From an uncultured virus (IMG/VR IMGVR_UViG_3300031784_002315) (Duplodnaviria > Heunggongvirae > Uroviricota > Caudoviricetes), in the IMG/VR virus record IMGVR_UViG_3300031784_002315, positions 1 through 64,000 of that record: a stretch of DNA of 64,000 bases; one strand, given 5' to 3'. The notes beneath the pieces were generated by a model. That model was not told the origin of the DNA. It made no database searches and saw nothing but the letters and a program-made list of their open reading frames with translations. Positions 20,995 through 64,000 of the stretch are shown here, piece by piece. Position 1 is the first letter of the stretch. Every line of letters starts with the position of its first letter. The translations under genes were made by a program, and so were the position numbers.

Positions 20995-22041
20995 TTAAGT
21001 TTTTAAAAAACTCAATTCTGGTATAAAGTCATTTATTGACTTTTGAAGCACATTGTCTTGACTTGCCGTAGTTTCAATTAATTTAGAGAGTAACTCAGTG
21101 TCGTGATTGTAATTTTTTAAAAATTCTTCAGTTTCTTTGCACATATGTTTTTCAATATACCATTGAGGTAAAGCATTTATCGAAAATTCCAAAGGATATG
21201 TAATAGGAAAAATATTATAGTATAATCCGTAATCTTGACATAATTTGTTTATATTTTCTATATCATGATAATTATAGGCTTGCAAAACTGTATGAACATA
21301 TCTTTCACTGTTATCGTTTCTTTTATTAATATAGTTTTCCCACTTATCTAGATTTCTTTTTATAGTTTCCCATTTGCTTCCATCTCTAATATATTCGTTT
21401 GTTAATCCAGTACCGTCAATACTATATCCAATTATAAAACTGTCTATATTTGTAAAATGTTTTAAATATTTTTCAGGAGGAACTGTTAAATTTGTGTTTA
21501 CATAAAAAGAAATTTTATTTTCTTTATTTTTTTCGATAAACTCAAATATATGAAACACTTCATCAGTTATTAATGGTTCTCCACCTAGATATTTTATAAT
21601 TTTAATATCTTTACTTTTTATCTTAGATAGAACGTTTTCTAAATTATAATAAGACACAGGTATATTGCTGCCTCCTAAAGTTTTTTGCCACAAACTACTA
21701 TGTCTAGAATCACACATTCTACATTGATTATTACATTTATTACTAACAGACAACTCTAACATTTCAAAAGTGTTTAAGTCAGATTTACAATAAAAATCAT
21801 AAGAATCTTTTACAGAATGTAATCCTAGTTCGATGTGTTTTTTACAGTTGTAGCAACCCGGATCCCATGAATTGCCCTCCATATTTTTTCTTATATTTGC
21901 TATATATTCGGAATGTAAAAAGTCATCCGGAGACATATCATTTACAGAAATTTTACTTATACCTTTGTACGAACAGCATGGTTTATAAAAACCACTGAGT
22001 TCTATACACACTTGATTATGAAGGGCTTTACAGATTGGCAT
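20995..22041 (-). CDS. radical SAM protein, N-terminal twitch-like type
   Basis: N-terminal C...PCC...CYNC; CNNQCRMC; GGEP; SIDG..YIR. Confidence 0.88.
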   Translation of the reverse strand: MPICKALHNQVCIELSGFYKPCCSYKGISKISVNDMSPDDFLHSEYIANIRKNMEGNSWDPGCYNCKKHIELGLHSVKDSYDFYCKSDLNTFEMLELSVSNKCNNQCRMCDSRHSSLWQKTLGGSNIPVSYYNLENVLSKIKSKDIKIIKYLGGEPLITDEVFHIFEFIEKNKENKISFYVNTNLTVPPEKYLKHFTNIDSFIIGYSIDGTGLTNEYIRDGSKWETIKRNLDKWENYINKRNDNSERYVHTVLQAYNYHDIENINKLCQDYGLYYNIFPITYPLEFSINALPQWYIEKHMCKETEEFLKNYNHDTELLSKLIETTASQDNVLQKSINDFIPELSFLKT

Positions 22042-23153
22042 TAGTGTTTTCTTTTTGGTATTTTACTGTCAGCCGAACTAACACAACTATCAGTTATACA
22101 GGGCATTGGATTAGAAAACAATTTAAATCCTGTTTCAATGTTTCCTAATGGAACATCTGAACAACTGTAACTACGTTTTATACTTCCGTCAGGTTCTCTG
22201 ATAATAATTCCTTGATACCCAGCATTGCAATTCCAGCCTTTAAATTTATTAAAATTAAAAGCATTAAATCTTTCGGCTTGATCCATGTACCATTTTTTTC
22301 CTGTAGAATCTAAAAATTCTACTTGAAAATGGCTAGGAACATTTGAATCATTATTAACTAAAGCGTGTTTAGGTAGTTCAAAATTAGGTCTAGGACGGTC
22401 GTTCCATTTACGCTTTGTTTCTGTATAAGCACGCTGCGGCATACCGTTGTGTAAACGTTTTAGATTGTCATCTGTGTATCCATCTACTACTCGGCTTGCT
22501 GTAGGGTCGCTTTGAGGCTTTAGCGTTACGTTTATGCCCTGCTCGTGGAAGAATAGTGCATTGTCCCAATCACGTTCAAACCATTCGGGTACCATAACCA
22601 TGTTGATAGTAACTTGAACATCGTGTTCTTGACATAATATCAGTTTGTCTGCAAAATCCTGCATCTTTGCTGTTGTATCTAAATGTTCAGTGTGCAAACT
22701 TGCTGTAATGCTTGCTCTGTGAAACGGCTTGACTTTTTCTACATAATCTTCAAACCAGCGCACAGGTCTACTACAATTCGATGTCATATGTACACTAGTA
22801 TAATTGGTATTGTCAACATCATCTGCTAGATGTTTTAGTATGTCTAAGTATCCAGGATGAAATGTAGGCTCACCACCACTTAACGAAAAGTGAAAACTAT
22901 TAAATCCATTGTCACGAGCCTGACGCTTTATTTCGTCGATGGTTTTGAGACATAACTCTGTAGGTCTATGATCTTTTCTGTCAGATCTTGCATAGGGCCA
23001 GCAGTATGAGCATCTGTAGTTGCAGTATCTTCCAAGGAGCCAAGATACAGTAAATAAGTCTCTATATAAGAGTGTCCGCTGGCCGACTTGTATAATGTCG
23101 TCAAACGGAATCTTGGTAAAATCATAATTACTCCATTTTAAATCTTCATTCAT
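22041..23153 (-). CDS. radical SAM protein with C-terminal Cys-rich (SPASM/twitch) region
   Basis: CNYRCSYC, GGEPT; C-terminal CNAG...C...LGNI...C..C. Confidence 0.88.
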   Translation of the reverse strand: MNEDLKWSNYDFTKIPFDDIIQVGQRTLLYRDLFTVSWLLGRYCNYRCSYCWPYARSDRKDHRPTELCLKTIDEIKRQARDNGFNSFHFSLSGGEPTFHPGYLDILKHLADDVDNTNYTSVHMTSNCSRPVRWFEDYVEKVKPFHRASITASLHTEHLDTTAKMQDFADKLILCQEHDVQVTINMVMVPEWFERDWDNALFFHEQGINVTLKPQSDPTASRVVDGYTDDNLKRLHNGMPQRAYTETKRKWNDRPRPNFELPKHALVNNDSNVPSHFQVEFLDSTGKKWYMDQAERFNAFNFNKFKGWNCNAGYQGIIIREPDGSIKRSYSCSDVPLGNIETGFKLFSNPMPCITDSCVSSADSKIPKRKH

Positions 23154-23158
23154 AATTT

Positions 23159-24412: not shown

Positions 24413-25258
24413 ATGAGAGATAACGTAACAAGAGAGTATACTAAAGAATGGTTACAAACTGACAGGCCGCAACCTATGTACAGTAATAAAATTAACGAGT
24501 TTTACGATAATTTTTATAAAGAAAATCCAGTACATACCGCAGATTTAGACTCGATTTTTAAAGAAACATTTGTTAATTGGCTTAAAAATCATCAGTATAG
24601 TAAATTTAAAGGTGTAGATGTTTTTAAAAGATTAGACATTATAAACGGCTGTACTCAATATATCGATGATCTTTATCAACGCTGCGGTTCGTTACAAACT
24701 TTTGAAAACGACTATAAGTATCATTATAGATTAAATCCTAATATAACTTATACTACTATTGATACATTAGATCCAAATAAAGAGTTGTTAATTTCAATGC
24801 CGTTTCCGTACTACGGTGATGTACATCCAGAAATGACAGAAATTTTAAATACTTGCTATAAACTAAAAATACCTGTACACATCGATGGTGCTTGGATAAG
24901 TTGTATTCGAGATATCGAATTCGACTTTGACCACCCTGCTATTCAAACATTTGGTATTAGTTTAAGCAAGGGAGGGCTAGGTGGAAATAGAATAGGGGTG
25001 CGGTTTGCAAGAAATACTCCACTAGGTGCAGTAACTATAATGAACGACTTTAATATGAATAGTCAAGCATTGGTTAGTATGGGTATTAAATTTATGGAAA
25101 CATTTGGCCCAGAATATTTTTGGAAAACATATAACGAAGAATATAAAAAAGTAATAACTGACTTTCAACTGTTGCCGACTAAATCTATACATTTAGCCAA
25201 AACTGCCGCTGGCAAACCTGTTGGTATTAGACCATTGTTAAGATTTTTGAAAAAATAG
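24413..25258 (+). CDS. small fold-type I PLP-dependent enzyme-like protein
   Basis: HIDGAW and SLSKG...RIG motifs (aminotransferase-like Asp and Lys). Confidence 0.6.
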   Translation: MRDNVTREYTKEWLQTDRPQPMYSNKINEFYDNFYKENPVHTADLDSIFKETFVNWLKNHQYSKFKGVDVFKRLDIINGCTQYIDDLYQRCGSLQTFENDYKYHYRLNPNITYTTIDTLDPNKELLISMPFPYYGDVHPEMTEILNTCYKLKIPVHIDGAWISCIRDIEFDFDHPAIQTFGISLSKGGLGGNRIGVRFARNTPLGAVTIMNDFNMNSQALVSMGIKFMETFGPEYFWKTYNEEYKKVITDFQLLPTKSIHLAKTAAGKPVGIRPLLRFLKK

Positions 25259-26321
25259 GATCAAGGTCTAATAAATTTGTATTTCTTATGTTGTCATGCC
25301 AACTGTTGAATTCTTTGTATCGTATAAGTTCATTTATATTAAATTTGTAATTTTTAAATCTATCAACTAATTTATCCGATATAGGATGTTTTAAAGATTG
25401 CAAATATTCTATTTTTTGTTCTCTAATATCGTCAGGTATGCAGTCAACCTTTCCTGGAACTGCTCCAAACATAGGATTCATGTGTACTTTATCAGAATCA
25501 AACTGAAAAAAGTATTCTATCCAGTCTTCAACTAGCACAAAATTTACCATTTGAATACACATGTTAATACTGTAATTATTTGCAGATTTTATTATTTTAT
25601 GAATGTTTTTTTCAACATTATACCATTTTGCACCTGTTCTTATATACTCATAAGATTTTCCAGCGCCGTCTAAACTTAAATTTATGTTGACCTCTTTAAA
25701 TTGTTTCACTCGACTCATCCACGGGTTATTAACACTTGTACAATTAGTTGTATACTGCAAGCGAACAGTTTCTGTCATACCGGTCTCTATAAAATAATCT
25801 AAAATAGGAAAGAGATTTTTGTTAACTGTTGGTTCGCCACCTAATATAGCAAGATGTCTTAAACTAGATAAATCAAAGTCTAACACGTCATTGGTATCTC
25901 TTTTTTCAATAGGCTTTATCAAATTATGTAAAACTCGTTCTTCTTCGATGAGGCTGCTACTACTCGGGCTACACATTCTACATTTTAAATTACACAAATT
26001 ATCCGGCCTATAATCTAATTTGTTTATTTTTCCTATTTCATACTTATTATTTTTTACGTTTTTATCAATAAAATTTCTAGCCGACAAGATGCCATGTGAC
26101 TCAGTATTAATACATTCTTGACAACTAAAAGCAATAAAACTTGTATCGTGTGTTTCCATTGCAAGTTTTATTTTATCCAAATATTCACTATCTTGGTAAT
26201 CTTTAACTTTTCCTTTATATTTTTCTCCCCTCCATTCACAACACGGAGACGTTCCGCCGCCACTATATACTCCACTGTATTGGATTGTTGTCCAAGGTGC
26301 ATAGCAAAAAGGTTTATTCAT
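25227..26321 (-). CDS. radical SAM protein, N-terminal twitch-like type
   Basis: FCYAPW...PCC...CQEC; CNLKCRMC; GGEP; start at ATGA overlap 26321. Confidence 0.88.
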   Translation of the reverse strand: MNKPFCYAPWTTIQYSGVYSGGGTSPCCEWRGEKYKGKVKDYQDSEYLDKIKLAMETHDTSFIAFSCQECINTESHGILSARNFIDKNVKNNKYEIGKINKLDYRPDNLCNLKCRMCSPSSSSLIEEERVLHNLIKPIEKRDTNDVLDFDLSSLRHLAILGGEPTVNKNLFPILDYFIETGMTETVRLQYTTNCTSVNNPWMSRVKQFKEVNINLSLDGAGKSYEYIRTGAKWYNVEKNIHKIIKSANNYSINMCIQMVNFVLVEDWIEYFFQFDSDKVHMNPMFGAVPGKVDCIPDDIREQKIEYLQSLKHPISDKLVDRFKNYKFNINELIRYKEFNSWHDNIRNTNLLDLDPIFSKILTMV

Positions 26322-27469
26322 ATCTCTTCTAATTTCCATCCAACAACATCCCATGTGTTACAATTTCTATAAGAATCAGTCATTGCAACATGAGATTTTA
26401 ATAAATTTAATTCTTTAGGGTTGTTTGCGTTCTTTAAAATAAAAATTAATTCGTTAATCTGTTCTATCTCTACGTCAGTGTAATCTACAAATATAGTACT
26501 TTCTATATCTGCTATAGCCTTATCTCTTGCCCGTTTCGGAGTATTATCAATACTATACCAAGGTGCTCCGTTAAGCCAACTAAATCCTATCTTAAATCTA
26601 GTATCGTAATTTGTATATTCTTTAAACCAAATGATACTTTCACTTAAATTTAAAACGTTTAAGTTATGAGGAACTATAACAAATTCGCAAGTTATCCACG
26701 GATACTTTTTAAGAATATCAATTTTTGATAAGACGTCATTCCATTTTAAGGGCCATCTTAAATATTCGTAAAAATCTTTTCCTACTCCGTCGATACTAAA
26801 GTTTATATGTACATGCTCGAATTCTTTTAGCTTAACAATTTGTTCCTCTGTAAAACTTCCGTTAGTTGTTATATTAAGTCCTGGCAATTTTTTACCAGAC
26901 TCAATTAAACCATCTATAAGTTTATCAAAATGAACATTTATAAAAGGTTCGCCACCACTGATTTCAATTTTTCGAATAGTGTCTGCGATTGAAATTATAT
27001 CATTGTTTATATTACGATACCAAGTCTTTGTTTTATTCCATACATGTTTTTTACTTATTAAATTCAAAAGTTCTTGATCAGTAACGTTATCTTTCATTTC
27101 TCTATACTGTTTTTCAATTAAACTACTTCTACTCGAGTTGCATATACGACATGCAGTATTGCATTGATTGCCGTAAGTAATCATAATATGTTCTATTCCG
27201 TTGTTGGGTTTATTTTCATAGTATGCATTTCTTTTTTCACGCATACTTTTAGATCCATTGTTTTCTTGTTTCCAACAAAAATTGCATCCACTTGTTTTAT
27301 GATTGTTGTTTAACTGGTTTTTTAAATTTTTTAACCAATCACTATTTAAGTATTCATTAAAACTTGTCATTTCTGGTCTAATACCTACATATTGACAACA
27401 CGGTCCCAAGTTTCCTCTACTATCGAAATGTATTTGTTTATAAGGTTCGCTACAAAATGTGTGTGACAT
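26318..27469 (-). CDS. radical SAM protein, N-terminal twitch-like type
   Basis: FCSEPY...PCC...CNFC; CNTACRIC; GGEP. Confidence 0.88.
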   Translation of the reverse strand: MSHTFCSEPYKQIHFDSRGNLGPCCQYVGIRPEMTSFNEYLNSDWLKNLKNQLNNNHKTSGCNFCWKQENNGSKSMREKRNAYYENKPNNGIEHIMITYGNQCNTACRICNSSRSSLIEKQYREMKDNVTDQELLNLISKKHVWNKTKTWYRNINNDIISIADTIRKIEISGGEPFINVHFDKLIDGLIESGKKLPGLNITTNGSFTEEQIVKLKEFEHVHINFSIDGVGKDFYEYLRWPLKWNDVLSKIDILKKYPWITCEFVIVPHNLNVLNLSESIIWFKEYTNYDTRFKIGFSWLNGAPWYSIDNTPKRARDKAIADIESTIFVDYTDVEIEQINELIFILKNANNPKELNLLKSHVAMTDSYRNCNTWDVVGWKLEEI

Positions 27470-28869: not shown

Positions 28870-29763
28870 TTACATCTTCTCTTGTTCTTTGCGCCATTCT
28901 ATTAATAGATCCTCATCCAATTCGATCATAAACATCATAAGTAGACCCATTTTACTGTTCCATGTCTTTTTATGTTCGCCGCCTTTGGTGCCTTCGTTTG
29001 TTGCGTGTAATTGCACAGCATCAAATATACACGGAGATCCCGGGGTCCAATCAAATACTGATTCAGGGTTTAAACCTTGTAATCTACGATAAGGAGTATT
29101 CATATACTTGTTATAAAAATCTTTGTCAAACGGCTCGTCGGACTGCGGTATAGGGTTGCCATCTCTGTCATAAAATTGAAGGTGTTTATAGTCGGTTACA
29201 ATTTCGTAAATACTGGCAATATTTTTAGTTTCGGCACCGCCGTTGTAAACTTTAGCCCATCCTATATCACGTTCTTCGAAGAAGACTATCTGTCCGCCGT
29301 CTATTGTATCAAGATGTGTTCCTATCCATAATGGTGTAATAATATTTTTCCACGTGGTATATTTTCTTTGAGGATGGTTTAAAGGCACATGCTCTAGCAT
29401 GTTTTTATAACCTTTTTCACGCATTGCATCTTGGTGCAACCCATACTGCTGGGGAGTAATAAAATAGTTGCCGCCAATTACTGGAGTTTTTTCAGCAGTT
29501 GTGCCTAATGCTGCATCAAACTTTTCTTTATAACGCTGATATATTTTGCTCATATCAACATCAATGATTACTGTCCCATTTTTGTTTAATCTAGGAACAT
29601 TGTAGTCTGCTGTAAAAGCATTTTTCCAAAGCCAATCAAGTTCTTTTTCATCCCACATATTTTCAATACATGCGGCTTTGCTCGAATGTCTACGAACATT
29701 TTCTATAGCAATAGGATGGTCCATCGGTAGTTGATAATATCCCGGTTCGTCAATTCGACTCAT
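28870..29763 (-). CDS. Fe(II)/2OG oxygenase-like
   Basis: LHQD...GG.IVF...FDAVQLHA...K. Confidence 0.6.
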   Translation of the reverse strand: MSRIDEPGYYQLPMDHPIAIENVRRHSSKAACIENMWDEKELDWLWKNAFTADYNVPRLNKNGTVIIDVDMSKIYQRYKEKFDAALGTTAEKTPVIGGNYFITPQQYGLHQDAMREKGYKNMLEHVPLNHPQRKYTTWKNIITPLWIGTHLDTIDGGQIVFFEERDIGWAKVYNGGAETKNIASIYEIVTDYKHLQFYDRDGNPIPQSDEPFDKDFYNKYMNTPYRRLQGLNPESVFDWTPGSPCIFDAVQLHATNEGTKGGEHKKTWNSKMGLLMMFMIELDEDLLIEWRKEQEKM

Positions 29764-30814
29764 TGTTATTCTCCATAAAATTATACAATAATGGCACTAC
29801 GTTTTTTAAATGCAATCCAGTAATGTTATCTATCGTCTTTGTAAATTTAGTCAATTCTGCAAATTTATTATTGTTTTTAATACTTTTAAAATATTTTTGA
29901 TTGTAATTATCTTTGATAATTTCTAAATAGTCCAACGGTAACGTGTGTACACTTAAAAATTCAGGAACTACTAGCAAACTACTGTAATGTTTTAAAGATA
30001 GACTATTTGCGAGTTCTTTAACATTTTTCATGTCATGTAAGTTATATGCTTGTACAGTACTATAAACATTTACATCGTAATCTGTTTTAGACCACTTTAT
30101 AATATTTTTTTCAATAGTATTCCACATCTTTCCGTATCTAATATAATCGTTAACTAATCCAACACCGTCGATGCTAAGTTCTATTGTTACTTTTTTAAAT
30201 TTATCTAAGTAATGTAACCATTTTGTAGGAAAAAGTGTACAGTTGGTATTACATTCAAATTCAATGTTTTGTATTATTCCTTTTATTTCTAAAAATTCAA
30301 ACAGTTCTTTTATTTCTGGAGTTATAAATGGTTCTCCTCCTAGGTATTTAATTTTTTTTAACTTAGACAAATCAATCGTTGAAAATATTTTTTCTACACT
30401 AATAGTTGGTTGAATAGTTGTAGTATAATAATCATTTAATACTTGGTTGTCAGTTACTAATTTATTCCAAAAAGTACTGTAAGTAGGAGAACACATCTTA
30501 CAAGCAAGATTGCAGTTATTACTTAAACTAATCTCAACATATTCAATATCCGAACTACCTGATAAAGTTTTATTTAACACTTCTCGTAAACTTGTTTGTC
30601 CTCGCTCTTCTTCTTCTTTGCATTTTTTACAACCAGACGACCATCCGGAAAACATATCTGATTTAATAGATTTATAAAAATCACTGTCTTGATATGATTT
30701 AAAATCGACTTGGTTTATATCCACCAAAGGAAAATTATTAAACCGACAACAGGGCCGCCAACTTGCTGCTACTGTAATACACATATGATTTGTCAACGCA
30801 TTACAAAATGGCAT
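29750..30814 (-). CDS. radical SAM protein, N-terminal twitch-like type
   Basis: FC...PCC...CKKC; CNLACKMC; GGEP. Confidence 0.88.
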   Translation of the reverse strand: MPFCNALTNHMCITVAASWRPCCRFNNFPLVDINQVDFKSYQDSDFYKSIKSDMFSGWSSGCKKCKEEEERGQTSLREVLNKTLSGSSDIEYVEISLSNNCNLACKMCSPTYSTFWNKLVTDNQVLNDYYTTTIQPTISVEKIFSTIDLSKLKKIKYLGGEPFITPEIKELFEFLEIKGIIQNIEFECNTNCTLFPTKWLHYLDKFKKVTIELSIDGVGLVNDYIRYGKMWNTIEKNIIKWSKTDYDVNVYSTVQAYNLHDMKNVKELANSLSLKHYSSLLVVPEFLSVHTLPLDYLEIIKDNYNQKYFKSIKNNNKFAELTKFTKTIDNITGLHLKNVVPLLYNFMENNNESN

Positions 30815-32277
30815 TATCCAAAACTTTTCTTTATCATTTCAATTTTTTTACGCACCATCCACGATTTTTCTTGCTCTGCAAATTTAGATAAAAAGTCGTT
30901 TGCTTCTTCAAGACGTTTGAGTCTTACTTCAAGTGTATTATCTCTAAATTTCCAATTCCAGTCGTTGTACCAATATTCAAGTTCATCTTTTACTTTATTC
31001 CATACTGGAGTATCATCAGATAACATCATAGTATTTGCCATACTAACATACATAAGTTTTTTTTCATTAACTCTTTTTGTGGAATAGCCTTTTTCATATA
31101 ATTTTTTAATAGTATCTAAAGTTATTTGATGGTCTATGTCGGTTTCAAAAGGATGACCAACAAACATTAACAGTGTGTGGTGTATTTCGTATTTTTGCAA
31201 CATTTCAAAGCACCACCACATATCTTCATCTGTAAACTTTTTTCCTAGTTCAAACCTGACTGCTTGACTAAAACTTTCAACACCAACGTCGAGTGCATAG
31301 CAGCCACTTTCTTTCATAAGACAGTAGTCTTCTTCTGGACTTTGTCTAAAGTTTCTTACTATCCATTGACTATGCCATCTAATTTTTTCATCTTCGGTAT
31401 TTCTTGTATTGTTAAAATCTGCTAAAATATGAAGCATTTCTCTAAACGCTTTCATACTACCATTTATAAGACTATCTGTAAATTTAAAAGTAGTTCTGTT
31501 ATACTTTTGTTTAACTTGAATAATTTCGTTAGCAATACTTTCGCCACTTCTAAAAACATATTTTGGCCATATTTCATAAACATTGCAAAAATCACAACGT
31601 TTAACACACCCTCTGCTTCCGGTAATATATACTGGTTCGGGTTGATTAATAAATGGATATTCGTTCCAAGTAATGTCATTATAGTTTGGAACTAGTACAC
31701 TGTTTATATCGATTAATTGATAAGGAGGTCTATCATCAATGCCATCGTTATCTATTTCTCCCTTTAACAAATTAATGATCGGAACTTCGCCGTCACCGCT
31801 GATCCAATGATCAATTAGTCCGTGTTCAAAGTATTTTTTAGTACGTCCTCTTGTAACTTCGGCGCCGCCCCATATTATCTTTGTTTCTGGTAAGTTTTCT
31901 CTAATAAGTTGACTAAGTTTTATTGCAACTGCACTACTCATTACTGTTAATAAACTTAACCCTATCCACTTAGGATTTTTTTCTTTGAAAAGGTTGATCC
32001 ATTCGTCAAAAACATATTTGTATTTTTTATAATTTTCACCAAACACTTCGTCGACTTTTTCAATATCTCGACATCTAAATGCACTATCTTTATCAAAAAA
32101 CTGATCTTCATCTCCGTGTTGTTTAAATTCGTTATATAATTTAATATTTAAATCTATAACTTCGCAAGAAAATCCGGCAGATTCTATATGAGACTTTAAT
32201 ACTGCTGGACCAACTGTTGGAGCATCTGGAAAAATTTTAGGTACAATGCATATTAATATATCAAGACGTTTGTTCAT
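30814..32277 (-). CDS. cobalamin-dependent (class B) radical SAM protein
   Basis: N-terminal B12-binding-like region (IGLS, WGG, GDGE); SRGCVKRCDFC; GVES; GHP.ET. Confidence 0.85.
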   Translation of the reverse strand: MNKRLDILICIVPKIFPDAPTVGPAVLKSHIESAGFSCEVIDLNIKLYNEFKQHGDEDQFFDKDSAFRCRDIEKVDEVFGENYKKYKYVFDEWINLFKEKNPKWIGLSLLTVMSSAVAIKLSQLIRENLPETKIIWGGAEVTRGRTKKYFEHGLIDHWISGDGEVPIINLLKGEIDNDGIDDRPPYQLIDINSVLVPNYNDITWNEYPFINQPEPVYITGSRGCVKRCDFCNVYEIWPKYVFRSGESIANEIIQVKQKYNRTTFKFTDSLINGSMKAFREMLHILADFNNTRNTEDEKIRWHSQWIVRNFRQSPEEDYCLMKESGCYALDVGVESFSQAVRFELGKKFTDEDMWWCFEMLQKYEIHHTLLMFVGHPFETDIDHQITLDTIKKLYEKGYSTKRVNEKKLMYVSMANTMMLSDDTPVWNKVKDELEYWYNDWNWKFRDNTLEVRLKRLEEANDFLSKFAEQEKSWMVRKKIEMIKKSFG

Positions 32278-33676
32278 TGTCAAAGATGCCCTTCATTTCA
32301 GGAAATACATTTGAAAAATTAATATTTCTTTGTTTGTCACAAAGATTTAAAAATTCTTTCATTTCAGGAAGTCGTTGACTCCAGTCTTCACTTTCCATGA
32401 AGCTAAGTATTCCATTTAGTCTTTTAATACCATATTCGGCATTGCGCCATTGCTCAAAGTTTACATTACCGTTATGCCAACTAGGAATTCCTTTTTCCCA
32501 ATTTGCTTCCCACCACGGATACCATGACTCGTATTTGCGTCTGCATTCTTCTTTGAACCATTTGGGCAAAACTTTTACATTTAGATGAGCAGGCCAATAT
32601 ACAAAGTGTTGACTTATGCCGCCTGCTCCAAAGGGCCACATATTGATTTTTTTAAAACCTTTTTCTAATTTCCATTGTATAAAATCAGGCAAGTAATAAA
32701 CATTTAGTGCTTGCACTGCACAAGCAATAGTAATTTCTACATTATCACTAGTTTCATTGTCTAAAATGTGAAATACTTCTTCTTGTCTATTCCACTTACT
32801 AGGATAACGAATATAATCGTTCATTTGTTCTATGCTGTCTATGCTATAGTGAAAACGTACAAGTTTAAATTCTTTCCATAAATCAAATAGATCTTCTCTC
32901 CATTCAACTCCATTTGAATTATATCGTAGTTCTAGATTTTTTGCATAACCCTGTTTGATACATTCTTCAAGAATTTCGTAATGTTCTTCGATAATAAGAC
33001 TTTCACCGCCTGCAAAATAAATTTGTTGCATATTTGGAATTTGTTCATAAAATTGTTTCCAAAATTTAGGATTTTGCTTATGCCAATTATAACTACTTCC
33101 GTTGGTGCTACCTTTATTATCCCATTGCATAATTTCTTTAAGACTAGCATTTTCTACCGCAGGAAATATTGCTTTGTAGTCTTTAATCCAACCACTGCTA
33201 TCGTGTGGACTGCACATTACACAAGCAAGTTGGCATTTGGTACCAAATCTAAGATCGATGTATGCCAACTGTGGCGGAACACTTCCGTCGTCCGCAGTTT
33301 CAGATAAAATTTTATCTAAATCAACACGTTGTTTCCAATAAGATGTTTCCCATTGACGTTTACTACAATGACCTGCTGCCTCTTCTTTATAGCATTTAAG
33401 ACAACTAGGAGGTTTTTCACCATTTAACATTTGCTTACGAACATTTTTCATGTAAGTACTGTTCCAACTAGATAAAAAATCACTTACATTTAAATTACTA
33501 GGCTTTCCATCTTCAGTTCGTAAAATTCCAACCTGGCCGCCGTATTCTTTATCATTTGTTGCACCTACACTGCTTGCATTTGCTGTACAGCACACTCTCA
33601 TAGATCCGTCAGGTCTAGTGCTTAGGTGAACCCACGGCAATATACAGAATGTTTCAGATGGTAATTTATCAGTCAT
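32261..33676 (-). CDS. radical SAM protein, N-terminal twitch-like type
   Basis: FCILPW...VCC...CLKC; CQLACVMC; AGGE; SIDS..YIR. Confidence 0.9.
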   Translation of the reverse strand: MTDKLPSETFCILPWVHLSTRPDGSMRVCCTANASSVGATNDKEYGGQVGILRTEDGKPSNLNVSDFLSSWNSTYMKNVRKQMLNGEKPPSCLKCYKEEAAGHCSKRQWETSYWKQRVDLDKILSETADDGSVPPQLAYIDLRFGTKCQLACVMCSPHDSSGWIKDYKAIFPAVENASLKEIMQWDNKGSTNGSSYNWHKQNPKFWKQFYEQIPNMQQIYFAGGESLIIEEHYEILEECIKQGYAKNLELRYNSNGVEWREDLFDLWKEFKLVRFHYSIDSIEQMNDYIRYPSKWNRQEEVFHILDNETSDNVEITIACAVQALNVYYLPDFIQWKLEKGFKKINMWPFGAGGISQHFVYWPAHLNVKVLPKWFKEECRRKYESWYPWWEANWEKGIPSWHNGNVNFEQWRNAEYGIKRLNGILSFMESEDWSQRLPEMKEFLNLCDKQRNINFSNVFPEMKGIFDNEQTS

Positions 33677-37830: not shown

Positions 37831-37840
37831 CAATCATCTC

Positions 37841-38920: not shown

Positions 38921-39137
38921 CGTGTATTAACGTTACGTCCTTCCCAGGTCCTGTTTTACTAGGTAAATCGCCATATTGTTCGACATACCAAGTTATAACT
39001 GCTCGATACCAACGTTGACTATCGTGATGTGCTACTTTATTAAATTGAGTTATATTGTTATTTGTTGCTTGCATTGTACTTAGTGCTCTTGCACACTCTG
39101 TTTGCAGTTCTCGTAAACTTAACTTATCTAAATCCAA
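38913..39137 (-). CDS. small hypothetical protein (74 aa)
   Basis: Overlaps both neighbours on the same strand. Confidence 0.65.
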   Translation of the reverse strand: MDLDKLSLRELQTECARALSTMQATNNNITQFNKVAHHDSQRWYRAVITWYVEQYGDLPSKTGPGKDVTLIHDV

Positions 39138-41668: not shown

Positions 41669-41675
41669 ATTGTAT

Positions 41676-41704
41676 ATAGTAACATAAAAAACTATTGATG
41701 TCAA
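41676..41704 (-). promoter_or_regulatory. sigma70-like promoter, 7 nt from ATG 41668
   Basis: Minus strand TTGACA-N17-TACTAT-atacaat-ATG. Confidence 0.6.
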
Positions 41705-49216: not shown

Positions 49217-50287
49217 TTATGGAAATTTTAAATCTAACTCTAGGATATTCATCAACTCTAGCATTTCATCTTGATGATAGTTGTAAAAATGCTGTTGATG
49301 ATATGGATGCCACGATTGTTTTATTAAACTATCAGGATAATATTGCAATCTAAATGCAAGTCTGTTCGGATTTCCAGGATGCTTTCTTCTATGTAATGTT
49401 ATCGAATTATCAAATAAACAAATCTCATTGTCTTGTAAGTACATGTGATCGTAAATATATTTTTCAGTTAACAATTCTCGGTCAATTTCTGCAAAAACTT
49501 TATCGCTATCATATTTACTCATACCTTTAATTCCAACAACAGAATTAAGTGTATAATGCAGTCCTTTGATTCCGCCCGGACTTGTAATTACCAAGGGTAC
49601 TTCAGCCCCGTCAACTGGTGCAAATTCTTTTCTTATGTTTTCTCCAAAACTTGGATCATCTTTTTCGAGTTCATTAATCCCTCCAGGAATGTATGCGTGA
49701 ACTAAAATCATTTCGTTAAGTTCGCTTCTAAAACTTTCAGAGATTGACTGATAATAATCAGCAGTTTGTAGAAATCCTGTAGAACTACCTACCATATACT
49801 CTCCGCCCATCAATGCAACTCCGGGAGTAAAGTTAATTACAGACGATTCGTTACTGTGCCAATATAACTCGCCAGATGAAAAGTTGCCCATTGGGTTACC
49901 GTATTCATCTCTTTTGCCACAAACTCGTGTTAATGTATTACCATGTTCAGTATGTTCAATATAAAACTGTTTCATTTTAATATAACGTTCGTCTTCTGAT
50001 GATACATTAAATTTTTTGTAATGTTCTTGAATTCTACCATCAAAATCTTGACCGTATTTTTTTTGAAAGTGCTTGCGAGACATTGTTGCACCGATAAAAG
50101 GACCCCATTGCCGAATTCTGTTATAGTACTGATCTTTAGTAATTTTAACGTTTCTTAGAATAGTTACTAAATCAGTTAAATGAAATTTTCCAATTTCTGC
50201 CCATTCTTCATCTGTGATATTATCAAAGTCTAAGTCGTCAATATAATGTCCATATGAACCTAAACCGGGAATTTTTGATACTTTCAT
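49217..50287 (-). CDS. TauD/TfdA-like dioxygenase
   Basis: WHSNE, T.F, FDNSITLHRR, R; start ATG 50287 after AGGAGA, TAAATA at 50319-50314. Confidence 0.75.
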   Translation of the reverse strand: MKVSKIPGLGSYGHYIDDLDFDNITDEEWAEIGKFHLTDLVTILRNVKITKDQYYNRIRQWGPFIGATMSRKHFQKKYGQDFDGRIQEHYKKFNVSSEDERYIKMKQFYIEHTEHGNTLTRVCGKRDEYGNPMGNFSSGELYWHSNESSVINFTPGVALMGGEYMVGSSTGFLQTADYYQSISESFRSELNEMILVHAYIPGGINELEKDDPSFGENIRKEFAPVDGAEVPLVITSPGGIKGLHYTLNSVVGIKGMSKYDSDKVFAEIDRELLTEKYIYDHMYLQDNEICLFDNSITLHRRKHPGNPNRLAFRLQYYPDSLIKQSWHPYHQQHFYNYHQDEMLELMNILELDLKFP

Positions 50288-50368
50288 TTTATCTCCTGTG
50301 GTATTATTTCTAATATTTACTGCAAACAAAAACATAGTTACTCAATTGTGATACTACTAAATATTACA

Positions 50369-51349
50369 ATGAGTCAACCATACCTGAGATTTTTAGATAT
50401 TTACTGCGGTGCTTATTGTAACTTAGCCTGCAATCATTGTGATGCAAGAAGCCATGTGTTGCAAACAAAAAACTATGATCCAACATTGGATGACATATTA
50501 ACAGGCATTAAATTAGTCAAAGAAAAATTTGATATAATCTATTATGGTACTTCAGGTGGTGAACCGTTACTGTATTTAGATCGAATTACAGAAATATTTA
50601 AATTTATAAAAAGCATAGATCCAGATGCTGTACTTTTACTACCAACCAATGGAACACTTATTGATAAAAAACTCAATGAACTAGTTGCGTTAATAAAACA
50701 GTTTGATGTTAGTGTTTTTGTATGTGACCATTTTTCAGGATTTGAAGATAAAACACTTTCAAATAAAGTTAAACAAAATTTTAAACTTTTAGCAGATGCT
50801 GTGAATTTGCCCAGTGGAAATGTGTCCGATTTTTATAAAAATCTATTCGATATAGAAAATAAAAAAAACGATATCTTGTATCAAGAGTGGTTAGACAAAA
50901 GACAAAACTTTTATGATTACATTGAAGATACTGAACAGGTATTTTATAATAAAACGTTTGTTCATTACAGAGAGCAAAGCACATTTAAACAAAATTATCA
51001 ATTAATTGATAATATTCCTAAACCCTTTAAAACAAACAATCCTGCCGAATCTTATCAAAACGGCTGCACCAGTGATATGTGTAGTTTTTTGATTGATAAA
51101 AAATTATACAAGTGTTCTTCTTTGGGTACATTAAATAGATTTTTAAATCATCATAATTTATTAAACGACCCAGATTGGCAAAAATATTTAAATTATAAAC
51201 CTATAAATTTAGAAAATTATAACAACGACGAAATTGATTTTTTTGATGAAACAAAATACTGCGAAATAGGAGAATGCGACATGTGTTCTGACAAAGACAC
51301 TAGTTTTTTAAAAACACCAGAATATGTTTTAAAAAAATATACAAATTAA
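50369..51349 (+). CDS. radical SAM protein with C-terminal Cys residues
   Basis: CNLACNHC, GGEP, PTNG; C...C...LYKC...CDMC; start reassigned to ATG 50369 (TAAATA 5 nt upstream). Confidence 0.85.
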   Translation: MSQPYLRFLDIYCGAYCNLACNHCDARSHVLQTKNYDPTLDDILTGIKLVKEKFDIIYYGTSGGEPLLYLDRITEIFKFIKSIDPDAVLLLPTNGTLIDKKLNELVALIKQFDVSVFVCDHFSGFEDKTLSNKVKQNFKLLADAVNLPSGNVSDFYKNLFDIENKKNDILYQEWLDKRQNFYDYIEDTEQVFYNKTFVHYREQSTFKQNYQLIDNIPKPFKTNNPAESYQNGCTSDMCSFLIDKKLYKCSSLGTLNRFLNHHNLLNDPDWQKYLNYKPINLENYNNDEIDFFDETKYCEIGECDMCSDKDTSFLKTPEYVLKKYTN

Positions 51350-57207: not shown

Positions 57208-57211
57208 CGGT

Positions 57212-59678: not shown

Positions 59679-60374
59679 ATGATCGTAGATGGTGTGGAAA
59701 TACCTTTAAATAAAGATTGGCAAAGGATTGGTATTAGTTTAAGCGGTGGTGCAGATAGCGCACTACTTGCTTATTTCATAATGGAAAATACATCTGCTGA
59801 TATTTACTTTACTACACAAATACGAATGTGGAAAACTAGACCGTGGCAAGAATATATTGCACGAGACGTAGTACACTGGTTTCAACGCCGCTATACCAAT
59901 CGTATTGAACATTTAACAAACTTTGTACCACCAGAATTAGAAGAACCTGTTAGTCCATTAATTCCAGACGAATATGGAAAATTAAAATCAGGTAACAGAA
60001 TAATACTTAGAGCATATAACGAATACATAGCACACAAATACAAACTAGATGCATGGTATGCTGGTGTTAATTTAAATCCTAGCGAAATATTCAACGGTGC
60101 TCTTCCAGAGAGAAATATTCCAGTCATACCTCCCGTTTTAATACATATGGGTATTCCTGTACACCATCCATTTATAAATGTTCAAAAAGACTGGATAGTT
60201 CGAAGATATGCAGAAAACGGAATAGTAGATTTATTTGATATAACTAGAAGTTGCGAAGGCGAGTTTGAAGATTTAAATTATACTAATTATAAACCCTATC
60301 AATCTGTTCCTATTTGCGGTAATTGTTTTTGGTGTTTAGAAAGAGCCTGGGGATTAAAACATGCACTCAAGTAA
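59679..60374 (+). CDS. QueC-like PP-loop ATPase
   Basis: SLSGGADS; P....K..I; TRSC...CGNCFWC.ER zinc motif. Confidence 0.7.
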   Translation: MIVDGVEIPLNKDWQRIGISLSGGADSALLAYFIMENTSADIYFTTQIRMWKTRPWQEYIARDVVHWFQRRYTNRIEHLTNFVPPELEEPVSPLIPDEYGKLKSGNRIILRAYNEYIAHKYKLDAWYAGVNLNPSEIFNGALPERNIPVIPPVLIHMGIPVHHPFINVQKDWIVRRYAENGIVDLFDITRSCEGEFEDLNYTNYKPYQSVPICGNCFWCLERAWGLKHALK

Positions 60375-61626
60375 AACATTTTGTATGCATCCGTTTACAG
60401 GATTAGCCACCAGAGAAGACGGTGCTGTTAAAGTTTGCTGTCGCAGTCAACCAGTTGGATGGATTCAAAACGAAAGTTTAGAAGAAATATGGAACAACGA
60501 TCAAATGCGAGAAGTAAGACGCCAGGTGCTAAACAATGAACGTCCTACTGTTTGCGTACCTTGTTTTGATTTAGAAGATCAGGGTGTAGAAAGTCTAAGA
60601 CAGCGACACATTAAAAATACGTTTCCAGACAGTAGAGTTAATCTTTATCCAACTGCACTTGATAGTTTGCATGACGATTATTCAATGCCTTTTGAACTTC
60701 CTACTATCGAAATTAAAATTAACAATCTTTGTAATTTAAAATGCAGAATGTGCAATCCTCTCGACAGCACACAGTGGAAGGATTGGAGCAGTGTCGTTGA
60801 GTTTTATCGAGAAGAAAACAACTACCTAGTCGATGCTGTTGCTAAACTAGGATTAGATAAGCGTCCGCATATTGATTTGTTTGTTGAGCGTGAAGATTTT
60901 TGGGCTAACTTAGAAAAACTGTTACCTTATTTTAGACGAGTAGAATTTGCAGGTGGCGAACCACTAATGGACCCAAGCCATTATCGTATACTTGATATGC
61001 TTGCTCCGTATGGTGAAAACATTGAATTAAAATATGCAACCAACGGTACTGTACTAGGAATCAAAGGCGGAAGAACTATTCACGATTATTGGCCTCGGTT
61101 TAAAAGTGTAAAAGTAAACGTTTCTATTGACGGTATACATGATGTATATGATTATATCAGAAGCAACGGCGATTTTAAAACAGTAGAAGAAAATATTAAG
61201 ATTATTAAAAGTATGCCCAACGTTCCGTATGTTGTTGGAGCATTTACAGTTCAGGCAGGCAATGTAATGCAACTAGACAGTGCAATACCTTATTTTTTAA
61301 ATGAAATGGGTATTGTGTTTTATAGTCATCGTGTAAATTATCCCAATGTGTTGTCTGCACAATGCATACCTGTTGAACTAAAAACTGTTGTTATAAATAA
61401 ATTAGAAATATTAAAAGATGAAATTGCTGCATATCCAATAATGAATATGCATCCTACTATACTTTCAATTACTAAACAACAAATCAACGATAACATAAAT
61501 TTCTTAAAAGGCAAAGACCTAAGTCATTTGTGGCCAAAAACTGTTGACTTTAATAGACGTTTAGATTCAAATAGGAATCAAGGACCATTTGAAAAGGTAA
61601 TTCCAGAATATGCACCATATGTTTGA
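60361..61626 (+). CDS. radical SAM protein, N-terminal twitch-like type
   Basis: FCMHPF...VCC...CVPC; CNLKCRMC; GGEP. Confidence 0.9.
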   Translation: MHSSKTFCMHPFTGLATREDGAVKVCCRSQPVGWIQNESLEEIWNNDQMREVRRQVLNNERPTVCVPCFDLEDQGVESLRQRHIKNTFPDSRVNLYPTALDSLHDDYSMPFELPTIEIKINNLCNLKCRMCNPLDSTQWKDWSSVVEFYREENNYLVDAVAKLGLDKRPHIDLFVEREDFWANLEKLLPYFRRVEFAGGEPLMDPSHYRILDMLAPYGENIELKYATNGTVLGIKGGRTIHDYWPRFKSVKVNVSIDGIHDVYDYIRSNGDFKTVEENIKIIKSMPNVPYVVGAFTVQAGNVMQLDSAIPYFLNEMGIVFYSHRVNYPNVLSAQCIPVELKTVVINKLEILKDEIAAYPIMNMHPTILSITKQQINDNINFLKGKDLSHLWPKTVDFNRRLDSNRNQGPFEKVIPEYAPYV

Positions 61627-62449: not shown

Positions 62450-63333
62450 AAAATCTATACCCACATTATAAAGATAGCATTAAAATAGAATGGAACCTAG
62501 GCAAACGTTGCAACTACGATTGTAGTTATTGTCCCAGCGAAATACATGACAACAGTTCAACACACACAGACTTGCGTGTATTAGAACGTGCAATTGACGA
62601 AATTGCAAAACTGAAAAATCCACGTATTAGTTTTACAGGCGGCGAACCTACTGTGCATCCACAATTTAAAAAAATTCTTTCTTATGCACAAAGACGTGTA
62701 AAATGGATTAGTGTTACAACAAATGGAACACGAACTGTAGATTTTTATAGAGATATATGTAGTGAATACATTGACTATCTTGTGTTTAGTTTACACTTTG
62801 AATACAACTGGGAGAGAGTACTAGGAACAATACTAAGCACTGCTGTTCCGTTTTATAAAAACAAAGTTCTTGTGCATATTATGATGCTTCCGGGAAAACT
62901 CAACGAAGCAAAACATGCAATCGAATATCTATCAAAGCACGAAATAAAATTTGCACTGCGTCCTATACGTTGGACAGAAACCCACGATGTGTTTGACGAC
63001 ACCGGTCGTTATAGTTTAGATGAACGTGAATTTTTAAAAACAGTAAATCACAATCCGCCTGCAAACACATTAATAGACAAAACAATTGAGTGCAATGTTA
63101 ACGATCTGTTAGTAAACAAAAACAATCAGTTTAAAGATTGGATTTGTCGTGCAGGTTTAGAAAGTTTAATGATTAACTGGGACGGCGAAATACATCGTGC
63201 AACTTGTAGAGTAGGTGGAAGTTTAGGTAACATTTATAAACAAGAGTTTGCTGTTCCAACAGAAGAAATAACGTGTACTAGAGAATGGTGTACTTGCGCC
63301 GCAGATATAAACATTACAAAATGGAAAAAGTAA
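62437..63333 (+). CDS. radical SAM protein with C-terminal Cys-rich region
   Basis: CNYDCSYC, GGEPT; CRAG...C...LGNI...C...CTC. Confidence 0.88.
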   Translation: MHSVENLYPHYKDSIKIEWNLGKRCNYDCSYCPSEIHDNSSTHTDLRVLERAIDEIAKLKNPRISFTGGEPTVHPQFKKILSYAQRRVKWISVTTNGTRTVDFYRDICSEYIDYLVFSLHFEYNWERVLGTILSTAVPFYKNKVLVHIMMLPGKLNEAKHAIEYLSKHEIKFALRPIRWTETHDVFDDTGRYSLDEREFLKTVNHNPPANTLIDKTIECNVNDLLVNKNNQFKDWICRAGLESLMINWDGEIHRATCRVGGSLGNIYKQEFAVPTEEITCTREWCTCAADINITKWKK

Positions 63334-64000
63334 ACGCTATAAATTTAACAAAGCCCGAACCGTTTTTAGTCACATGGGATATCGGAAGACGTTGCAATTT
63401 TGATTGTAGTTATTGCGAAAGCACTAGACACAATACGTATAGCCCGCCTACAGACTATAATCAACTTATAAAGACATTTGAATTTATAAAAGAATATGTC
63501 TCGGTTTACGACTTTAAAGAAGTTAATATAAATTTTACTGGAGGAGAACCTACAGTAAATCCACGTTTCTGGGACTTGATTTCTTACATTAAAACAAACA
63601 GTAACTTCGGTGTAGGCATTACTACAAACGGAACATGGCATCCAAAGCATACAGATTTTATATTAAAAAATTGCAACGGAGTAACTGTAAGTTGGCACAC
63701 CGAAGCAGATGAAAAATTACGTGAACGTGCAATACAAAATGCCATTGCATTACACAATGCAGGGTTATGGGTGTCTGTCAATGTAATGCTGCACACAGAC
63801 TACTGGGATATTGCTGTAGATGCATACAATCGTTTAAAAAGTGCAGGAGTAAATGCTGTACCAACTCCACTCGGTGACGGTGTTAAAGAACGTACCGATT
63901 GGTTTGAAGATAGCGAAGGTGTATTACGCAGAACTGGGCACCAATATACACCGGAACAATATGCATGGTATTGGAATACTCAAGGAATTGCCAAAGAAAC
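63321..64000 (+). CDS. radical SAM protein (runs off the window end; absent from the ORF track)
   Basis: MEKVNAINLTKPEPFLVTWDIGRRCNFDCSYC...FTGGEPT...TTNG; paralogue of 62437-63333. Confidence 0.85.
   Translation, partial: MEKVNAINLTKPEPFLVTWDIGRRCNFDCSYCESTRHNTYSPPTDYNQLIKTFEFIKEYVSVYDFKEVNINFTGGEPTVNPRFWDLISYIKTNSNFGVGITTNGTWHPKHTDFILKNCNGVTVSWHTEADEKLRERAIQNAIALHNAGLWVSVNVMLHTDYWDIAVDAYNRLKSAGVNAVPTPLGDGVKERTDWFEDSEGVLRRTGHQYTPEQYAWYWNTQGIAKE

Follow-up and report, generated by a model that had tools for sequence, protein, structure and literature searches.

In aminoglycoside and deoxysugar pathways, radical S-adenosylmethionine (SAM) enzymes (rSAMs), some of them of twitch or B12 type, act beside DegT/StrS aminotransferases, 4,6-dehydratases, methyltransferases and the amidinotransferase StrB1. 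Among viruses, a T4-like uncultured marine genome of 183 kb, TARA_ERS488813_N000010, is described with 12 rSAM genes, counted as Fe-S-dependent proteins in the passage that treats them (Nishimura et al., 2017; PMC5332604). Here we analyse an rSAM array in the IMG/VR virus contig IMGVR_UViG_3300031784_002315 (76,348 b), whose first 64 kb (64,000 nucleotides) are the window referred to throughout. An earlier reading of the letters (the sequence-only reading) took the array for a system that modifies virion proteins, their glycans or DNA bases and has been expanded as a variable surface or anti-defence toolkit. The proposal that we favour, and to which we give about an even chance, is that the array is a flexible island by which a freshwater Rak2/GAP32-like T4-type jumbo phage tailors an amino-sugar or glycan.

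The Pfam scan took in 44 open reading frames (ORFs) between 20995 and 64000, and 20 of these match PF04055 (Radical_SAM), exactly the 20 that had been listed by their CxxxCxxC motif; predicted starts differ for two of them (50348 as against 50369, 63285 as against 63321). In hmmscan 19 of the 20 exceed the PF04055 cut-off of 29.5 bits, and the other, 37841–38920, scores 28.0 bits there and 29.9 bits in a six-frame search. The array runs past the window, as had been supposed: the six-frame search of the whole contig (78 ORFs) returns 24 matches between 20995 and 70763, all above the cut-off. The motif occurs once in each of these 24 rSAMs and in no other ORF of the contig. Counting a QueE-like gene at 909–1808, the 76-kb fragment holds 24–25 rSAM genes, 24 of which fall within 50 kb, and the genes are tightly packed, with only three gaps longer than 60 b between 20995 and 73393.

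All-against-all BLASTP together with the NCBIfam models divides the rSAMs into four groups. Group A (ten proteins) has an N-terminal twitch domain, a GGE motif and four cysteines (11, 29, 92 and 95 of 32261–33676) that are invariant in the alignment and lie upstream of CxxxCxxC; its members score 205–423 bits against NF033640 (cut-off 170), whereas the other 14 rSAMs, at 23–58 bits, fall outside the family. Two proteins, 60361 and 69369, are matched by Pfam SPASM at the N-terminus. Group B (five proteins) has CxxxCxxC near residue 20 and conserved SPASM-like C-terminal cysteines; group C (seven, one of them loosely) consists of short proteins with the motif near residue 25–45. Group D (two) has a B12-type architecture that fits the class-B (cobalamin-dependent) rSAM methyltransferases, with no subfamily cut-off reached (30814–32283, for example, has 73.7 bits against the PhpK-family model, cut-off 600). 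The group-A profile aligns weakly, over the N-terminal domain, with the twitch domain of BtrN (E = 2.8e-4), and also matches the cytosylglucuronate decarboxylase BlsE.

NF033640 is the only NCBIfam model whose cut-off is reached by any of the 24 rSAMs, and therefore none is recognisable as a housekeeping enzyme, which agrees with the sequence-only reading. Its anti-defence role finds nothing in its favour: the viperin (pVip) model NF038283, with a cut-off of 180 bits, gives 58.6 bits at best and covers only the N-terminal rSAM core, and the PADLOC pVip matches (25–65 bits) mostly take in the first 100–180 of 257–262 profile positions and never the whole model. PADLOC also returns one candidate-family match, PDC-M51A, for a B12-type rSAM. 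A recent expansion is likewise disfavoured, because the paralogues are only 20–44% identical to one another in BLASTP and the duplications thus appear to be old.

Related phages share a compact part of this array. To score conservation, every protein of the contig was compared by tblastn with 79 related phage loci and with the arrays of five large relatives; many of the 79 loci are incomplete, so that the counts are lower bounds. The core, all on the minus strand, consists of three rSAMs (one each from groups A, B and C), a GT-A-fold transferase, a class-I SAM methyltransferase and an ORF of 74 residues. The group-A protein 32261, which served as search anchor, is found at 50% identity or more in all 79 loci. 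The group-B protein 37841 reaches this level in 66 loci (any match, 79), the group-C protein 22041 in 46 (any match, 64; 73–84% identity in the five large relatives), the methyltransferase-like 39124 in 31 (any match, 71) and the transferase 40025 in 19 (any match, 69). Most other genes show paralogue-level similarity only or have orthologues in a handful of loci. Around this core the gene repertoire differs from one related phage to another, and to this extent the variable toolkit is supported. Richness in rSAMs is itself the rule in this phage lineage and not a one-off: the 48 full-length related loci have a median of 10 rSAM-like genes per 21 kb (range 5–13), and the five large relative contigs contain 7–20 PF04055 matches each, with 2–14 NF033640 members above cut-off per relative. 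Two orthologous NF033640 genes in these relatives (G002:C1:223219-224286 and G005:C1:33266-34327) have one in-frame TGA each, which could mark a pseudogene or a selenocysteine codon.

The 74-residue ORF sits between 39124 and 37841, directly upstream of the core SPASM-like rSAM. It is 68–80% identical in the top matches among phage loci (67 match rows) and has a mean column identity of 83% over 21 sequences, with 29 of 74 columns invariant and conservation even along the whole length. Because differences per codon position (1/2/3) amount to 0.21/0.10/0.44, the ORF is judged to be a real gene under purifying selection, and by its alignment it ranks among the most conserved genes of the island. 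It has no family match in PHROG, PADLOC or Atlas.

In the GT-like (glycosyltransferase-like) protein 40025–41704 the conserved unit comprises the C-terminal 225 residues. Among relatives it stands alone (~226 residues), comes after one or more degenerate copies of the same unit (proteins of up to 1127 residues) or is fused to a 39124-type protein; loci L009–L019, L062, L068 and L081 display these copy-number and fusion variants. The domain, folded with 25 homologues in AlphaFold2 (AF2), has a predicted local distance difference test score (pLDDT) of 93.3. All listed Foldseek matches with E ≤ 1e-3 have the GT-A or nucleotide-diphospho-sugar transferase fold and nearly all are glycosyltransferases, among them RmlT, WrtF, polypeptide GalNAc-transferases, SunS, ThuS, ArnC, TarS and PBCV-1 A64R. 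Of the two DxD aspartates, D55 is nearly invariant and D57 invariant in the 25 sequences. The modelled domain thus combines the GT-A fold with the DxD of GT-A glycosyltransferases; its activity is not settled by the fold, because VIA alignment gives IspD-type cytidylyltransferases the same scores as GT-A folds (Z 9–10.8). By tblastn against cultured phages the protein has a single counterpart, in Ralstonia phage RsoM2USA (43% identity over 220 residues). There, in a cultured jumbo phage (MG752970.1, 216629-217330), it is a stand-alone protein annotated as hypothetical, as are its neighbours, and might offer an experimental handle.

The second core transferase, 39124, has a paralogue at contig 70760-71365. 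Its top Foldseek matches are the small-molecule methyltransferases PsoF, SgvM, DnrK and SibL (probability 1.00), and SAM-aminobutyryl transferases (NAS, CntL) are also returned; Atlas matches are to viral hypothetical clusters only, with a methyltransferase hint. By fold this protein upholds one of three methyltransferase-like assignments in the sequence-only reading; a second (28268) is weak and the third (27472) has no match.

What the accessory genes suggest is the tailoring of nucleotide-sugars or amino-sugars, which refines the macromolecule-modifying array of the sequence-only reading. The amidinotransferase, correctly recognised before, is closest to StrB1 and matches SxtG, HsvA and AGAT less well. 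An NDP-sugar (nucleoside-diphosphate-sugar) 4,6-dehydratase/epimerase and a DegT-like protein follow beyond the window. The array of one large relative (G004) encodes DegT, an NDP-hexose C-methyltransferase (Methyltransf_13/14), a TylF-like O-methyltransferase, three ORFs of UDPG/GDP-mannose dehydrogenase type, an epimerase/dehydratase and nucleotidyltransferases; that of another (G002) encodes an epimerase, UDPG dehydrogenase, DegT, a 2-oxoglutarate (2OG) oxygenase, B12-type rSAMs, a redoxin and a TctA transporter. In relatives' arrays a TctA tricarboxylate-transporter subunit and redoxin/AhpC-type proteins are placed as follows (L088 15613-16902 and 5597-6184; L083 428-955), and the redoxins may supply reductant to the Fe-S enzymes.

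Read together with the core, these genes suggest the following course. A nucleotide-activated sugar would be taken from host pools, dehydrated and aminated. Functionalisation of unactivated C-H bonds by the rSAMs would follow, as oxidation, epimerisation, dehydration or C-methylation; BtrN, DesII, AprD4 and GenK do such radical steps in aminoglycoside and deoxysugar pathways. The product would be methylated and amidinated, and the GT-A enzyme would finally move it onto an acceptor, which would most likely be a macromolecule of the virion or the cell envelope, with the phage MetK replenishing SAM. Differences in repertoire between related phages and Bdellovibrionota (see below) would give differing glycan structures, as in O-antigen loci.

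Other accessory assignments of the sequence-only reading have thinned out. Two of eight proposed Fe(II)/2OG oxygenases hold in the window (49217–50335 and 56332–57207) and the other candidates matched nothing, with one more hydroxylase beyond the window (65410-66186); both pyridoxal phosphate (PLP)-enzyme-like proteins (24413, 46064) and the proteins at 55081 and 55689 resembling short-chain dehydrogenases/reductases match weakly, as does the QueC-like protein 59679, which has matches in 36 related loci and a counterpart in one Bdellovibrionota locus (L121). The fusion of a cold-shock domain to a 2OG oxygenase suggests a nucleic-acid-directed enzyme, apart from the sugar theme. Glyco_transf_10 is matched (E = 3.7e-4) by contig ORF 71355 only, and 28870-29763 has no match in a PDB phmmer search. 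The repeat protein 41738–43183 is present in only nine related loci; tblastn in phages gives no match and PDB phmmer only chance-level ones. From its repeats it is possibly a fibre-like structural protein, and as such no more than a hint towards an acceptor.

Table 1. Features of the contig; positions above 64,000 lie beyond the window. Cut-offs are those of the respective models.
Position	Strand	Assignment	Evidence or remark
2..667	+	GTP cyclohydrolase I (FolE); flank, outside array	PF01227 E 2e-39; phrog_2197
909..1808	+	QueE-like rSAM without canonical CxxxCxxC; flank	phrog_2076 E 1e-48; NCBIfam QueE models all below cut-off
1875..2972	+	MetK, S-adenosylmethionine synthetase	three S-AdoMet_synt domains, E 1e-32 to 1e-56
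20995..22041	-	rSAM group A	NF033640 205 bits, cut-off 170
22041..23153	-	rSAM group C, core member, CxxxCxxC near N-terminus	PF04055 55.6 bits
23183..24373	-	rSAM group A	NF033640 294 bits
24413..25258	+	PLP-enzyme-like, paralogue of 46064-46969	valine-pyruvate transaminase E 2e-7, below cut-off
25227..26354	-	rSAM group A	NF033640 217 bits
26318..27469	-	rSAM group A	NF033640 215 bits
28268..28897	-	methyltransferase-like (weak)	Methyltransf_24 E 3.5e-4, below cut-off
29750..30814	-	rSAM group A	NF033640 227 bits
30814..32283	-	B12-binding-type rSAM, group D, class-B methylase-like	PF04055 58.6 bits; B12-binding 31.4 vs cut-off 32.1
32261..33676	-	rSAM group A, core member, search anchor	NF033640 423 bits
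33719..34666	-	rSAM group C	PF04055 49.1 bits
34659..35783	-	rSAM group A	NF033640 220 bits
35786..36805	-	rSAM group B	PF04055 39.1 bits; SPASM E 8e-4
36811..37833	-	rSAM group B	PF04055 32.2 bits; 40% identical to 35786
37841..38920	-	rSAM group B, core member	PF04055, scores in text; invariant C-terminal cysteines in alignment
38913..39137	-	74-residue ORF, TTG start, core member	overlaps both neighbours by a few bases; missed by 100-residue ORF list
39124..40044	-	class-I SAM methyltransferase fold with N-terminal helical domain, core member	AF2 pLDDT 91.7
40025..41704	-	GT-like, core member: three degenerate repeats and one intact GT-A-like domain (residues 335-559) with DxD (DGD)	fold model
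41738..43183	+	481-residue repeat protein	opposite strand, mid-array; ~10 tandem glycine/asparagine-rich repeats of ~25 residues and a distinct C-terminal domain
43178..45025	-	B12-type rSAM, group D, KedN5-like C-methyltransferase-like	PF04055 48.9 bits; NF033712 205.6 vs cut-off 700
45025..46086	-	amidinotransferase, closest StrB1 (inosamine-phosphate)	PDB 1bwd E 1.6e-86, full length
46064..46969	-	PLP-enzyme-like (weak), paralogue of 24413	Aminotran_1_2 E 0.022
46970..48067	-	rSAM group B	PF04055 45.1 bits
48067..49209	-	GT-like only by weak hint	distant paralogue of contig ORFs 73459 and 74587; 71355 linked only via 74587
49217..50335	-	TauD/TfdA-family Fe(II)/2OG dioxygenase	PF02668 55.1 bits; phrog_24590 E 1e-83
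50348..51349	+	rSAM, loosely group C	PF04055 47.3 bits
51346..52494	-	rSAM group A	NF033640 248 bits
56332..57207	-	cold-shock domain fused to 2OG-Fe(II) oxygenase	PF00313 and PF13640
59679..60374	+	QueC-like (weak; C-terminal 70 residues only)	PF06508 E 2e-4; phrog_1550 E 4e-7
60361..61626	+	rSAM group A	NF033640 319 bits
62437..63333	+	rSAM group C	PF04055 56.7 bits
63285..64000	+	rSAM group C, continues to contig 64373	PF04055
contig 64355, 67335, 68392, 69369		four rSAMs	PF04055, six-frame search
contig 65410-66186		Asp/Asn hydroxylase	family match
contig 72482-73393		NDP-sugar 4,6-dehydratase/epimerase	PF01370 E 1.6e-39; dTDP-glucose dehydratase/LegB models best, below cut-off
contig 75654-76241		DegT-like protein, 195 residues	PF01041 E 5e-15

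The phage origin supposed by the sequence-only reading is supported through relatives. The left flank encodes FolE, the QueE-like protein, MetK (already noted near the array), a 5'-3' exonuclease, a MoxR ATPase, a DUF2201/VWA protein, a protein with an Mtd_N domain and a subtilase. Relatives of the anchor rSAM are encoded in 211 IMG/VR stretches; the best 80 of the 211 are 75–100% identical, and several of these 80 sit on contigs of 236–342 kb. All five large relatives have a T4-type Gp23 capsid gene, 65–70% identical to that of Phosso, Vibrio phage 2.275.O, GAP32, CBB and similar phages of 350–470 kb. In G004 the array is followed by homologues of the VWA, MoxR, exonuclease and MetK genes (45–78% identity; MetK 78%), the same genes that flank the array of the window, and the VWA protein of the window is closest (38–43% identity) to proteins of jumbo phages (Phosso, the PA5oct group, SCTP-2, Atu_ph07, large coliphages). 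Because the large relatives carry Gp23 and the flank (MetK, exonuclease, MoxR, VWA) is syntenic with Gp23-bearing contigs of 246–342 kb, the source DNA is assigned to a Rak2/GAP32-like T4-type jumbo phage, of which it is a fragment. MetK is a plausible source of SAM for the array. The G+C content of the array is 0.31 and that of the left flank 0.395, a difference of ~8 points.

The largest relative, G001 (342 kb, 92% complete; the record of locus L074), implies a genome of ~370 kb, of which the 76-kb record would be ~20%; the 4% completeness that CheckV gives to this record does not fit such a genome. Because the rSAM array occupies both ends of the linear G001 record (319–342 kb and 3–31 kb), this record would appear to be a circularly permuted, essentially complete genome. 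Upstream of our array, the low-G+C block 13727–20992 (diaminopimelate/ornithine-decarboxylase-like PLP enzyme, AMP-binding ligase, saccharopine-dehydrogenase-like protein, nitroreductase) is nearly without counterpart in the related phage loci, where only the nitroreductase and 16817–17677 find any match; it may be a polyamine or amino-acid-conjugate module.

Near-identical DNA is present in 20 DNA sequencing runs from 14 studies, labelled lake water, freshwater and, oddly, 'fungus' metagenome, and 15 of the 20 are marked as possible sources of this DNA; no RNA run is listed for 30001–40000. Megablast of 1–20000 and 21000–45000 against cultured phages gives no match, and tblastn of the anchor rSAM finds only three cultured-phage records at ~22% identity. 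A search for AmoC, meant to test identity with the published amoC jumbo phages, matched none of the five large relatives, and its control also matched nowhere. When 1–20000 was compared with 401 Bdellovibrionota genomes, 300 matched; the listed matches all fall in the metK region at 68–81% identity, none of them spacer-like or near-identical, and carry no host information.

Counterparts of the array occur in bacteria. An alignment scan with group A, restricted to one genome per species, yields 66 loci, and the titles of 55 name Bdellovibrionota lineages. About 16 bacterial loci, on contigs of up to 0.9 Mb, encode an orthologue of 32261 at 55–63% identity, together with orthologues of 22041 (65–68%), 37841 (47–50%; up to 63% in bacterial loci), the GT-like (32–48%) and the methyltransferase-like protein (33–43%). 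NF033640 is above cut-off in 31 of 151 sampled Bdellovibrionota genomes, with up to 11 or more copies, and in none of 14 control genomes; whole Bdellovibrionota genomes of 3–4.5 Mb have 32–46 rSAM genes. Their arrays (L103, L105, L107, L121, L128) contain 4–12 rSAMs per 21 kb and have the G+C content of their own flanks. L105 (nine rSAMs) and L107 (seven) both include GT-like and methyltransferase-like genes, L128 encodes NeuB, a CMP-type cytidylyltransferase and a carbamoyltransferase, and the L103 cluster is flanked by rpoD, dnaG, yqeY, a deaminase gene and mscL. Cultured bacteria provide further NF033640 settings: a locus with five rSAMs, two DegT genes and a GT2 gene in Halobacteriovorax marinus, a neighbouring NDP-hexose 2,3-dehydratase and B12-type rSAM in Poseidonocella, and ketosynthases, an AMP ligase and GT2 in Paenibacillus. 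Two contigs from metagenome-assembled genomes, L116 (Neisseriaceae, 13 kb) and L130 (Gammaproteobacteria, 108 kb), have phage-type core genes 60–85% identical to ours, including the 74-residue ORF, and are probably phage contigs binned with bacteria.

A FastTree phylogeny of 207 group-A proteins needs 23 changes between virus and bacterium labels, of which well-supported branches force at least 15; with many long branches and no bootstrap this is an indication and not a proof. The ten group-A paralogues of the window occupy eight separate places, with phage and bacterial genes interleaved. For the paralogues, this scatter and interleaving suggest no recent tandem burst but old subfamilies, which phages and Bdellovibrionota have in common and have exchanged. 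As a tentative extension, which we hold possible but doubtful, the core and the swarm of N-terminal-twitch enzymes would form an undescribed radical system for hypermodified sugars, shared and repeatedly exchanged between freshwater jumbo phages and predatory Bdellovibrionota. Phages of ~350 kb would then infect Bdellovibrionota and rewrite or mimic the predator's surface glycan code, and NF033640 would stand for a new class of rSAM enzymes that modify sugars by many distinct reactions. We know of no jumbo phage that infects Bdellovibrionota.

Several points weigh against sugar tailoring. NF033640 and the other two core rSAM types have no known activity, substrate or product, so that their chemistry is assigned by context alone. 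The best-known role of SPASM and twitch rSAMs is peptide maturation, many weak NCBIfam matches of our rSAMs are to peptide maturases, and the highly conserved 74-residue ORF within the phage core could encode a peptide substrate. L103, the minimal cluster in bacteria, consists of four rSAMs and a GNAT gene and has no recognised sugar enzyme or clear GT-like gene. The high scores of IspD-type cytidylyltransferases mean that the moiety transferred by the GT-A-fold protein is not fixed. In Pfam scans of the 76-kb contig no flippase, polymerase, transporter or acceptor gene was seen, and several accessory ORFs in 52487–59633 match nothing.

The same chemistry could instead make a free small molecule in the infected cell, aminoglycoside/aminocyclitol-like or nucleoside-antibiotic-like and either released or intracellular. 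We consider this unlikely. The StrB1-like amidinotransferase, the DegT/StrS-family proteins and the B12-type rSAMs would suit such a product, as would the TylF-like and sugar C-methyltransferases of relatives, the TctA transporter within the G002 array and the matches of group A to BtrN (weak) and BlsE. Yet no scaffold enzyme of the 2-deoxy-scyllo-inosose or inositol-phosphate synthase type appears in the Pfam scans of the 78 ORFs of this genome fragment, the window showed no gene for resistance or export, and what is universal is a transferase, a methyltransferase and three rSAMs, not a scaffold pathway. Because the repertoires of close relatives differ greatly, surface diversity fits better than a single bioactive compound.

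If the rSAMs acted on a protein or peptide, either like enzymes of ribosomally made, post-translationally modified peptides (RiPPs) or in virion-protein maturation, the substrate would be the 74-residue protein or a structural protein such as 41738–43183, with the glycan added later. The main argument is the 74-residue gene itself, under apparent purifying selection, directly upstream of and overlapping the core SPASM-like rSAM. Typical RiPP precursors have a leader and a variable core, unlike this evenly conserved protein, and the ORF was not found in true Bdellovibrionota loci that retain the three rSAMs and the GT-like and methyltransferase-like genes. The twitch and SPASM architectures, many sub-threshold matches to PapB, WgkB, SkfB and YhhB (SkfB also among the PDB profile matches) and the glycocin S-glycosyltransferases SunS and ThuS among the fold matches of the GT-like domain are in keeping with peptide modification, and a mix of rSAM, B12-type rSAM, 2OG oxygenase and methyltransferase also occurs in proteusin pathways. 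Set against these are neighbouring genes for nucleotide-sugar enzymes and family scans in which no RRE/PqqD, protease or exporter family was detected, and we regard peptide modification as improbable.

Hypermodification of the phage DNA by glycosylated, aminated or 7-deazaguanine-derived bases to evade restriction is very improbable, and the DNA-base target of the sequence-only reading is weakened with it. T4-type phages commonly glycosylate their DNA, and rSAM and PLP enzymes occur in thymidine hypermodification; the contig provides FolE, a QueE-like rSAM and a weak QueC-like gene as well as a transferase and SAM-dependent enzymes. TGT/DpdA (PF01702), however, has no match in any of the five large relatives, one of which is 92% complete, and none was seen in the window, while all 14 controls are matched; a very divergent DpdA could escape this search. 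The deazapurine-type genes are present, yet TGT/DpdA was not found in the five large relatives. A base-hydroxymethylating enzyme was not seen in the contig and was not searched for in relatives, and the same core lies in bacterial chromosomes among housekeeping genes with the G+C content of their flanks. A lipid, a cofactor or an unforeseen product takes up the remaining probability.

Whatever its product, the island offers much new radical enzymology in little space, because for all three core rSAM types the reaction is not known, and a core so compact and conserved can be put to the test by heterologous expression. Should the product be a surface or virion glycan, the island would represent a new route of phage glycan diversification. 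The link to Bdellovibrionota raises the question of phages that infect bacterial predators.

In literature searches, with subscription journals outside the coverage, rSAM arrays in jumbo phages or Bdellovibrionota were not found described beyond Nishimura et al. (2017), nor were the core module, the 74-residue gene, the multiplication of NF033640 in phages or a Bdellovibrionota counterpart; papers on a moraphage and on amoC phages deal with different subjects. TARA_ERS488813_N000010 resembles the present phage in being T4-like, uncultured and unusually rich in rSAM genes; it is marine and has 12 in 183 kb, whereas the present freshwater phage has 24 in 50 kb. The discussion of that genome treats the rSAMs only as Fe-S clients and does not describe a core, a family assignment, a sugar context or a bacterial counterpart.

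With aminoglycoside clusters the contig shares a StrB1-type amidinotransferase and a StrS/DegT-family protein (Table 1). The twitch domain is N-terminal in group A and C-terminal in BtrN, and no NCBIfam model of an aminoglycoside rSAM reaches its cut-off here (AprD4, 17.6–33.9 bits as against 500). Those pathways use one to three rSAMs and a cyclitol scaffold enzyme, whereas the island, in a phage setting, has dozens, and no scaffold enzyme was found in the contig. In rSAM-SPASM RiPP systems the gene of the precursor peptide adjoins that of the enzyme, usually together with an RRE/PqqD-like element; here a conserved 74-residue ORF adjoins the core SPASM-like rSAM, and no RRE family was detected. 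From Wzx/Wzy- or ABC-type polysaccharide loci the island differs in that their flippase, polymerase and transporter families were not found in the contig. NF033640 ('twitch domain-containing radical SAM protein'), to which 10 of the 24 rSAMs belong, is a named family with no assigned function.

Further likeness is found among virus-encoded glycan systems and bacterial arrays. Chlorovirus PBCV-1 has, as here, its own GT-A transferase and sugar-nucleotide enzymes, and its capsid glycosyltransferase A64R is among the fold matches. To our knowledge, no virus-encoded glycan system of this kind is dominated by rSAMs. Mycobacteriophage virion glycosylation and DNA glycosylation by phage glycosyltransferases are among the cases cited in PMC12619734. 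The Bdellovibrionota arrays share the three core rSAMs with the phage at 47–68% identity, and the GT-like and methyltransferase-like genes in L105 and L107, these two being unrecognised in L103; they differ in having no 74-residue ORF and a G+C content equal to that of their flanks, whereas the phage island lies ~8 points below its left flank. The island is best filed among virus- or bacterium-encoded sugar-tailoring islands.

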